Positions 21,201-24,200 of a DNA stretch of 64,000 nt are shown here, in pieces. Under the pieces are notes generated by a model. It ran no database searches, was not told the DNA's origin, and saw only the letters and a list, made by a program, of their open reading frames with translations. The translations under genes and the position numbers were made by a program. Source of the stretch: Malacoraja senta (Eukaryota); assembly GCA_038087875.1 (NCBI GenBank), contig CM075993.1:9240001-9304000 (forward strand), read 5' to 3'. Each line of letters begins with the position of its first letter. Position 1 is the stretch's first letter.

Positions 21201-24200
21201 TTTTTCCACTCATTTATCATCTGATGAATGTGGAACCAGTTTGATTTTTGCAAGATTTCTTATGCAATTCTGGCCATTCAAGAGGCAATTTGCCAAAATC
21301 ACACAAGGGTGATAAAATTTGTTTTGTGGACAGTCTTGCAGCATTGTGGCTATGGATGCAAGAAAAATGTGTGGACATTTAAATATGTGCACTCAACATT
21401 ATTAAAATCCAGTTCTATTAGGATAGAGGTACTCCAGTCATTATTTAGGACAACAGTGCATAATCTTGCCAGAATCAAACTTTAGGTACCACACTACTCA
21501 AAAACATTGGACAAATCAGATGCCATAAAAAACAGTACTTGGGTATTCAGAAATCCTACTCCAAATTCCTTACACATAAATTGGCATTAACGCACCTAAA
21601 AATGTGTGTGAAAATGAATAATAATACATTACAATTAGTGTACTGTTGGGAAAATTGTCTAGCATTCAGTTGATTTTAAAATTCTTTAGAGACTAATATT
21701 TCCAAGGGATAATAGCTCAGCAAACAATAGTGACAACTACAATTATATTTCAGTGGAGGCCCTGGTCCAGTCTCTCTTTCCCTCACTCACCCTCTCCCCT
21801 GCCAGCCCTCTGCGGCAATGGTGGTGCCGTCTACCCGTCCCCCACGGGTGAATGGCTGCGACCGTCCATATCCCCCTCTGCCGCGGTAACTCACCCACAC
21901 GATCTTCTCGAAGGAGATCTTCTCCACCAGCTCACCGAAACTCGTGGTGCCCCCCGTGACAAACACCATCTCCCCCTCCCCCCCCCCCCCCCCCACGGCC
22001 CAGCCCGGCGGCGGCAGCGATCATCAGGCAGGCCGGGCGGGAACAGGCCGAGCAGCAGCAGTGGGCAGGGATGGGCCGAGCGGCAGCAGCGGGCGGTCGG
22101 GGACGGGCCGAGCGGCGGTTTAGCTGGAGTGGGCAGAGGGAGGGAGAGTCGGGTTGCAGGGTGGCCGAGCAGTTTGTGCGGAGCTTGAGTAACTCACACA
22201 CACGATGCAAACTGGTCCAATAGTCAAGTCAACAGGATCTAAACCACAGCTAACAATGAATGACCTGTGGCGGAAGGAACTGCACACGCTGCTTTTTATG
22301 GAGGAAGGGAGGGAGGGAGTGACTGAGGGTAGGGGACAGGAGAGGGAGGGAGGGGTGAGGGGAGAAGGGAAAGATCCTCAGGAGGTGAGGGAGAGTGGGG
22401 GGGGATTGAGGGAGGAGGAGGGGGTAGGGAGGGAGAGGGGGAAAGCGGGGGAGGTGAGGGGGGAGTATGGAGGAGATGGGGAAATAGAGGGAGAGGAGGG
22501 CGGGGGAGGTAGGGAGTGGGGAATAGAGGGAGGAGGGCAGTGCGGGAGGTCAGGAGGGATAGTGGGGGATAGAGGGATAGGAGGGGGGTAGGGAGGGGAG
22601 AGGAGTTATGTAGGGAGGGAGTGAGTGACTGAGTAGGGGAAAGGAGAGGGAGGGATTGGGGAGGAGGAGAGGGGAAAGAAGATGGAGGGTGAAGTGGAGG
22701 GAGAGGGAGTGCTGGGGATGAGGGGAAATGAGCCGCACCTGCGCAGTTGGGGGCTATGCGTGAATGGTGGAATATTGCGTTGGGGGAGCAGACCCAACTT
22801 AGTCTAGTTTTATATTAAAGCCAATACTGCAGTAATACAAATTCAACTTGGTAAATAAGATTTTCATGTTCAAGGCATAGTAAAAGAAAGTTAACTCTCA
22901 TTCCATACATGCAGAGCATTTACAACATTTTAAGTTTAACCCACGAAGTTGCACATTTCCTGTAAGCCATGAATTGTTTAAAGCTTAATACGCTGCACAG
23001 ATAAACAATTGCCAACCAACTTTTAAATACAATTTAAATAATTTACCAATTAAACCTCACTTACCAATCAGAATGAATGCAACAGCAATAAAGAATGTTA
23101 AAATGTAGCTTCTAATTGGTTCGCCATTCTTCCCATAACCCTTCCCAAAGAAATATAGCCCTTTATAAATATTATCCTTGCAGAGGGCCTGTAGGAATAA
23201 AAGTCAGCTATATATATATATATACTGCATTGATGAACAAATGTCATTTAAAAAAAATCTATACCTTGCTATTTAATACATTTTAATGAATAATTGGCCA
23301 ACACATCCCAAACAAGCCACACAATTTCATCTTATTACAAAGCATACATTTTCGAAAAGAACATGACAAAAACTGTTAATATTTAAGGCAAGGGAATATT
23401 TAATTTTTTTTTTATTTATTTATTTTTTAATGTTTATTTATTAGAAGTACATTACATTACAACCACATACATTAGTACTCGTCATTTATATCTTCTTACA
23501 ATTAATGTACTCCATTTATTTTTTACACTAGAAAAGGAAAAGATTGAAAGAAAGAAGAAAGTGAAGGAAAAAGTGAAAGTGTAGAAAATGTGACAACAAA
23601 AAAGGAAGAAGACCCTATAAGAGCAAAATTAAAAACAAAAGAAAAAGAGTTAAGGAATAGACCCTAGAAAGGAAAGAGAAAGAGAAAGAGGAAAAAGAGA
23701 GAAACAAATATTTTTATGAGCATTACGTAAATGGGACATACCAACTCTTCAACTATCATCCCCCCTTACCTGACCTCAAATTTTTTTTTTTTTTAAAGTA
23801 CTTTTGCACCCTATATTTGTAATAATTCTATAAATGCAGACCATGTCAGGTGGAAGTGATCTGGTTTACCTGCTAGGAGGAGTCTTATCTCTTCTAGGTG
23901 TAATGTTTCAAACATATTTGAAATCCACATATTTATAGTTGGTATTGGAGCCTTCTTCCAAAATTTTAGAATTAGCTTTTTTCCAGTTATTAACCCATAG
24001 TCCATTAGTTTCTTTTGAAACACATTTAGTTCTGGACCATCTTCCGTTATTCCGAAGATAATCCATTCTGCTTTGGGTATCAGTCTTGTTTTAAATAACT
24101 TTGTAAAGATTTCAAAAATGTCATTCCAAAATTTTTGAATTTTTGTACAGAAAACGAATGAGTGCGCTATAGTAGCTTCTTGGGATTGACATTTATCACA

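Follow-up and report, generated by a model that had tools for sequence, protein, structure and literature searches.

Results

Genes and repeats at the locus

The window analysed here, a continuous stretch of 64,000 nt, carries the SLC12A1 (NKCC2) gene on its minus strand. Sawfish SLC12A1 maps to exons running from 35513 down to 6117, the best matches of the exon neighbouring the intron considered below are elasmobranch SLC12A1 proteins, and three batoids lead the scores among 12 cartilaginous-fish proteins (1104, 1103 and 1096 bits, with sharks at 1080 or below). The host is thus probably a ray or skate, and its repeats resemble those of skates. This exon mapping bears out an earlier reading of the same DNA (the initial annotation), which had placed an ALG13-derived piece in sense orientation within an NKCC2 intron. 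That intron holds a repeat that contains a decayed ALG13 exon at one side and a Helitron-like terminus at the other, and three sibling elements lie elsewhere in the window (Table 1).

Residues 1-203 of SLC12A1 were not found in the window. The exon for residues 204-236 is present in two alternative copies on the minus strand (35513-35415 and 34932-34834), which we take to be the known mutually exclusive NKCC2 cassette. Upstream of SLC12A1 and on the same strand lies a fibrillin-type TB-domain exon (44700-44930, minus; Pfam TB, E=7.7e-9), with a 200-N gap (36535-36734) between the two; the presence of this exon there is possibly the product of a scaffolding join or a local rearrangement. Two LINE copies with long reverse-transcriptase-like frames (23409-25971 and 54378-56951) stand in opposite orientation and are 91% alike over 2.6 kb. 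A pair of 20-nt inverted repeat arms (21238-21481; 90% alike, 204 nt apart), single-copy by depth, is perhaps an old small element.

Table 1. The ALG13-bearing repeat, its host intron and the sibling elements, in coordinates of the window
Feature	Position	Strand	Basis
SLC12A1 host intron, 2727 nt in phase 1, flanked by exons that end at 23065 and start at 20337	20338..23064	-	SLC12A1 mapping
Left boundary of the repeat as found here, T|TC	21749..21751	+	contig ends and depth step
GC-rich stretch accompanying the exon, putative start of ALG13 intron 1	21750..21888	-	depth
Phase-0 splice-donor motif (GTGAGT) at the position of ALG13 intron 1	21889..21894	-	comparison with ALG13 loci
Decayed ALG13 coding exon 1, 27 codons	21895..21975	-	translation and ALG13 profiles
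Poly-G run followed by a CpG-rich segment that holds repeats of 28-32 nt, putative ALG13 5' UTR/promoter side	21976..22190	-	sequence and depth
Higher-copy internal module	22190..22300	+	depth; no Pfam match
Purine-rich low-complexity tract common to sibling elements	22300..22730	+	similarity and depth
Helitron-like 3' end: subterminal motif, hairpin without right arm, CTAG then T	22731..22807	+	shared with three siblings
Sibling Helitron-like element, CTAG|T end	38970-39930	+	subterminal motif, 7-bp stem
Sibling Helitron-like element	58296-59430	+	subterminal motif
Sibling that keeps both ends, A|TC at 63822 or 63826 and, after a hairpin, TTAG|T at 62830	62830..63826	-	sequence comparison

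Decayed ALG13 exon 1 and adjoining splice donor

On the minus strand of the host intron, 27 residues read directly into GTGAGT, and the surrounding sequence has a CpG-island-like composition, as the initial annotation had described. Over 21750-22200, GC is 0.68 and CpG o/e is 0.64, where the window as a whole has 0.40 and 0.45. To assess the proposed ALG13 origin we used profiles from two sets: 118 metagenome loci fetched by motif, of which the three tested all match PF04101 (E 7.5e-14 or better), and 114 fetched proteins, mostly named vertebrate ALG13 and none of them named as a cartilaginous-fish ALG13. The peptide ranks first of ~127,850 six-frame windows with both profiles, and HMMER gives it E-values of 1.1e-7 and 3.4e-6 among the window's 2695 stop-to-stop segments, the next best segments standing at 4.1 and 2. 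Both profiles are partly circular, one set having been fetched through an alignment that included the window peptide and the other through the motif of the initial annotation, so three further tests carry the weight.

First, the last 14 residues, which were selected by no search motif, still rank 36 and 46 of 127,918 (top 0.04%). Second, we compared the position of the donor across 60 distinct loci with enough sequence, after dropping duplicates and cut loci from the 118. GT stands at the window's exact codon boundary in 18 of the 25 loci without in-frame continuation into the next ALG13 motif and in 3 of the 35 with such continuation, which agrees with the claim that the donor sits at the 27-codon boundary of ALG13 intron 1; many of the 18 loci are closely related to one another, and we infer that they are of animal origin. 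Third, at codons 22, 25 and 27 this copy has F, I and W, each found in 0 of 66 distinct ALG13 N-termini, where the majority of the repeat family reads S, A and R (43, 36 and 7 of 66), so that all three changed codons move toward ALG13 and the family lies nearer to it than this copy does. We conclude that the piece at 21975-21895 comes from ALG13 exon 1, has decayed, and keeps its donor at the conserved position.

Among the 66 N-termini, M1 is present in 61 and the near-invariant V8 and D14 in 66 and 65; all three are glycine in this copy, a residue seen at these positions in 0 of 66. Codon 1 is GGG, not ATG, so the start codon is lost, with an ATG standing at codon 3 (21969-21967). The closest vertebrate protein found (P0134) is identical at 15 of the 27 residues, and the length to the donor equals that of ALG13 coding exon 1, the N-terminus of Pfam PF04101. 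Later ALG13 exons are absent from the window (best E=2). Unlike functional ALG13, then, the copy has Met1, Val8 and Asp14 changed and no other exons, and cannot make the enzyme.

Could the likeness be a chance product of a GC-rich repeat, or the donor a part of the repeat's own motif rather than of ALG13? Such a reading would be at ease with the generic searches, which are blank or weak: Pfam places Glyco_tran_28_C on positions 1-19 of the peptide at E=0.21, below the cut-off, no match was found in the PDB or by phmmer in 1.84 billion proteins, a word-index search gave 0 of 2 candidates, and the ESM Atlas gave no informative match. It could also draw on the circularity of the profiles and on an 18-nt near-repeat over the donor that recurs at 22189-22206. 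Yet it fails to account for the rank of the unselected residues, for a donor on a conserved ALG13 boundary, or for independent family letters that all shift toward ALG13, and we regard it as highly improbable. The near-repeat (21886-21903 and 22189-22206) covers both GTGAGT motifs of this region, and the letters of this copy at 21897, 21902 and 21903 are those of the second repeat instead of the family majority, a hint of local conversion or template switching.

What is preserved is a host exon with the donor that starts its intron and no spliced next exon. Because the donor is retained and exon 2 is absent, the proposal of the initial annotation that ALG13 was captured at the DNA level stands, and a retrocopy of ALG13 was rejected on the same grounds. 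Retroposition might still have acted through an unspliced or 5'-only transcript inserted into an existing Helitron and then amplified, and bats provide documented cases of retroposition into Helitrons (PMC4224331). This variant, however, meets the same kept donor and missing exon 2, finds no poly-A tract at the left edge, and sits badly with the rule that LINE-made copies are typically 5'-cut (PMC12001565), whereas here only the 5' end is kept; we give it almost no credence.

Copies in three species

Contigs from sequencing runs were aligned to 21300-22345 at 80% likeness, using four of 24 listed runs; 21958-22009 was skipped as repeat, and the terminus (22346-22807) lay outside the aligned stretch. 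Three runs, from three species and three studies, gave 1179, 2192 and 3226 aligned contigs, and the fourth, of unstated kind, gave 0 and is evidence for neither side. In all three, depth is flat across the flank and steps up at ~21750. By direct count, 25-69 contigs per run carry family letters at 21897-21911, which upholds the initial annotation in its expectation of many copies; together with the three siblings inside the window, the 1179-3226 contigs aligned per run mark the repeat as interspersed and numerous. Summed depth relative to the flank, which is not a copy number, is 105-275x at 21755-21859, 28-40x at 21860-21894, 250-453x over the exon, 93-353x at 22070-22139, 690-2571x at 22210-22314 and ~8000-10500x in the purine tract at 22315-22345. 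Since these values do not count copies, we infer, as likely, that the ALG13-bearing repeat has spread to hundreds of sites. The stepwise depth suggests nested subfamilies with a common right-hand end. The copy studied here departs from the family near 21843-21885, with loose contig ends at 21843.

The link of the ALG13 piece to the right-hand side rests on continuous depth and on four contigs from other copies that join the two (21792-22307, 21849-22072, 21930-22137 (X4) and 21941-22195 (X6)), one of which extends into the purine tract. Among the contigs listed, none spans the poly-C run or the whole stretch, and none reaches the terminus. The purine tract itself is 75% alike over 356 nt to that of the sibling at 63325-62997. 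On the minus strand of the internal module, an acceptor-like site at 22264 and a second GTGAGT at 22197 enclose a 67-nt piece (22198-22264) that is possibly a second captured exon; the module has more copies than the ALG13 piece. Searches at E up to 1 gave no Pfam family for 22123-22299 (one frame) or for three more frames across 21697-22228.

Helitron-like ends and the left edge

HLE1 elements are marked by A|TC at the 5' end, a short hairpin ~11 nt before the 3' end, and a 3' end of the CTAG|T type (PMC11417382, PMC4778049). The ALG13-bearing element has the 3' CTRR and target T in the form of CTAG at 22804-22807 and T at 22808, as does the sibling at 39926-39930, and the subterminal motif at 22768-22787 is present in all three siblings. 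The CTAG|T end reported in the initial annotation is thus correctly read, and the Helitron-like 3' end is common to this element and its relatives in the window.

The hairpin is less clear in this copy, and the canonical 5' end is lacking. The right arm of the family stem is missing; an alternative 6-bp stem is present (fold z -1.5), the sibling ending at 39930 has a 7-bp stem that ends 11 nt before CTAG|T (fold z -1.5), and three hairpin folds were not significant against shuffles (16, 13 and 40 of 200). No family-type 5' end was found within the host intron, and in place of TC preceded by a target A the left edge has T then TC. Four contig alignments stop fitting at 21749-21751, and the depth step falls 4-5 bases into the bin 21720-21754. 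Three short contigs of other copies (234-275 nt) run 44-103 letters past 21749, and in the 18 of 568 rows listed loose ends do not pile up at 21749-21751. We think it fairly probable that the edge at ~21750 is a truncation point and not the true 5' end of the family, and on that reading we class this copy as a fragment from a family that is likely HLE1. Family polarity was taken from the sibling at 62830..63826, which carries no ALG13 piece. Within the sibling at 38970-39930, a stretch rich in both GC and CpG (about 38970-39300) is possibly another captured island; five frames across 38784-39446 matched no Pfam family at E up to 1.

These edges also bear on whether a different mobile element, for example of the Pack-type cut-and-paste or HLE2/Helentron kind, adjoins or lies inside the Helitron-like end and carries the ALG13 piece, with no Helitron capture at all. 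The T|TC left edge in an intron lacking the family 5' end would suit such an element, as T flanks both present edges and HLE2 elements insert between T and T (PMC11417382); so would the rightward steps in depth, which imply that the 3' module also exists without the ALG13 piece. Against this, the 25 longest inverted pairs, of 57, include none that links 21750 with 22807, the four joining contigs come from other copies and connect both sides, and the siblings carry HLE1-type ends. We consider this alternative unlikely, and take a Helitron of HLE1 type as the probable carrier.

Age of the insertion and its bearing on SLC12A1

In species C and D, orthologous contigs run through this same left junction (21303-21952 with 25 differences and 21300-21935 with 30), so the insertion predates their split; it is present in both relatives aligned, and no empty site was seen in these. 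Provided that none of the 80 unlisted difference rows falls in the flank and that neither contig switches to a paralogue, differences number 10/447 and 14/450 in the flank and 15/203 and 16/186 in the element (P 0.003 and 0.006), a divergence of 2-3% in the flank against ~7-9% in the element. This faster change of the element argues against constraint.

The initial annotation had pointed out that the phase-0 donor does not match the next, phase-1 SLC12A1 exon, and this mismatch is confirmed; its suggestion that the copy could nonetheless offer SLC12A1 an internal start or donor finds no support, given the misfit of the frames and the decay of the copy. Joining the donor to the exon at 20337 yields Leu-Asn-stop, and an in-frame fusion to that exon was rejected because of this stop after two codons. 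The exons near 20017 and 18457 have phase 1 and the exon near 16023 has phase 2, which leaves the exon near 10248, four exons on, as the first phase-0 acceptor. As an internal cassette, all nine lengths between five pyrimidine-rich acceptors and two donors shift the frame. Every splice route tested does so, except the four-exon skip. The ATG at 21969 has good context (G at -3 and +4) and would open only a short frame.

Co-option, in which the copy would serve SLC12A1 as an internal promoter, a first exon or a regulatory cassette and yield a transcript that is shortened or targeted for decay, would be favoured by its sense orientation, a CpG o/e ratio still at 0.64, an intact donor, the context of the ATG, retention in three species, and the example of HelibatN3, which acts in this way in cell culture (PMC4778049). 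The stop at the first junction, the distance to a usable acceptor, the frame-shifting cassettes and the faster divergence of the element all weigh against it, and we judge such a role quite improbable. Judged by its sequence, the copy is likely inert for SLC12A1.

Discussion

A many-copy repeat with a Helitron-like CTAG terminus holds a decayed ALG13 exon 1 and its splice donor. We propose that this repeat likely arose through DNA-level capture by a non-autonomous Helitron, that it likely occupies hundreds of sites, and that the copy studied here is likely a truncated, inert passenger of an SLC12A1 intron; we put the probability of this reading at roughly 75%. In such a model, rolling-circle transposition would have begun at a 5' end that lay within ALG13 intron 1 or past it, run antisense over ALG13 exon 1 and its CpG-island flank, and stopped at an adjoining Helitron 3' end, by end bypass or composite capture (read-through). 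The chimeric ALG13-Helitron element would then have been amplified, and one copy would have entered the SLC12A1 intron before the split of species A, C and D. This intronic copy may subsequently have lost its 5' end, half of its hairpin and its start codon, and would be spliced out with the intron. In Helraiser the 5' end is essential and loss of the hairpin lowers efficiency to ~9% (PMC4778049), so this copy would be immobile. The orientation of the captured piece counts against our model: the ALG13 piece is antisense to its Helitron-like element, and captured pieces are usually in the Helitron's own orientation (PMC12001565).

We found no report in the literature of Helitron capture of ALG13, nor, among the matches listed, of Helitron capture in cartilaginous fish; supplements, Repbase and Dfam may list the family. 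The word "helitron" is absent from the main text of three skate and ray genome papers (PMC10115646, 10.1101/2025.06.08.657570 and PMC12361510), and the ALG13-bearing family may therefore be unannotated. What we describe is likely a known kind of gene capture in a new lineage, one that resembles HelibatN3. Much more tentatively, and as a possibility we find rather doubtful, rays and skates would carry a large undescribed Helitron burst, with a 3' module of some ten thousand copies, in which one subfamily would have scattered hundreds of ALG13 CpG-island promoter/first-exon/donor cassettes, some of them serving as portable promoters or exon traps. If so, batoids would offer a bat-like system for Helitron-driven regulatory change. 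The boldest form of this idea, in which the copy studied here would start a shortened NKCC2 transcript, is a long shot; for SLC12A1 itself the copy is probably without effect. For annotation and read mapping, hundreds of decayed ALG13 exon-1 copies could also be misleading.

Among vertebrates, capture of gene 5' ends by Helitrons has been described for vesper bats and Xenopus, in papers that leave the cause of the 5' bias open (PMC4224331, PMC4778049, PMC12001565), and a datable example in high copy number from a third and distant lineage would put the generality of this bias to the test. For the capture step itself our model follows HelibatN539, a composite capture by end bypass that holds the 5' end of one element, the 3' end of another and host DNA between them (PMC4224331); its parent locus still kept both ends. 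The likeness in content is to HelibatN3 of Myotis lucifugus, which amplified the promoter and first exon of NUBPL, together with part of its intron 1, to about a thousand copies, and for which trapping of downstream exons by intronic sense copies has been proposed and shown in culture (PMC4224331, PMC4778049). HelibatN3 and, likely, the ALG13-bearing family are non-autonomous Helitrons in which an N-terminal coding piece of a host gene and its donor were amplified, the promoter/5' UTR and intron-1 parts being putative in the ALG13 case. They differ in that HelibatN3 carries six codons of NUBPL in a bat and the present repeat the whole 27-codon exon of ALG13 in an elasmobranch, and the copy studied is decayed, has no recognisable 5' end and has only a putative promoter. 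In Heli1Xen1 of Xenopus laevis, a vertebrate HLE1 family, 17 of 19 captured coding pieces likewise come from the 5' ends of genes. That family is young, with 19 fragments in 64 insertions and at most 17 copies named (PMC12001565); the ALG13 family, by comparison, likely has hundreds of copies, is old enough to be common to three species, and carries its captured exon antisense to the element.
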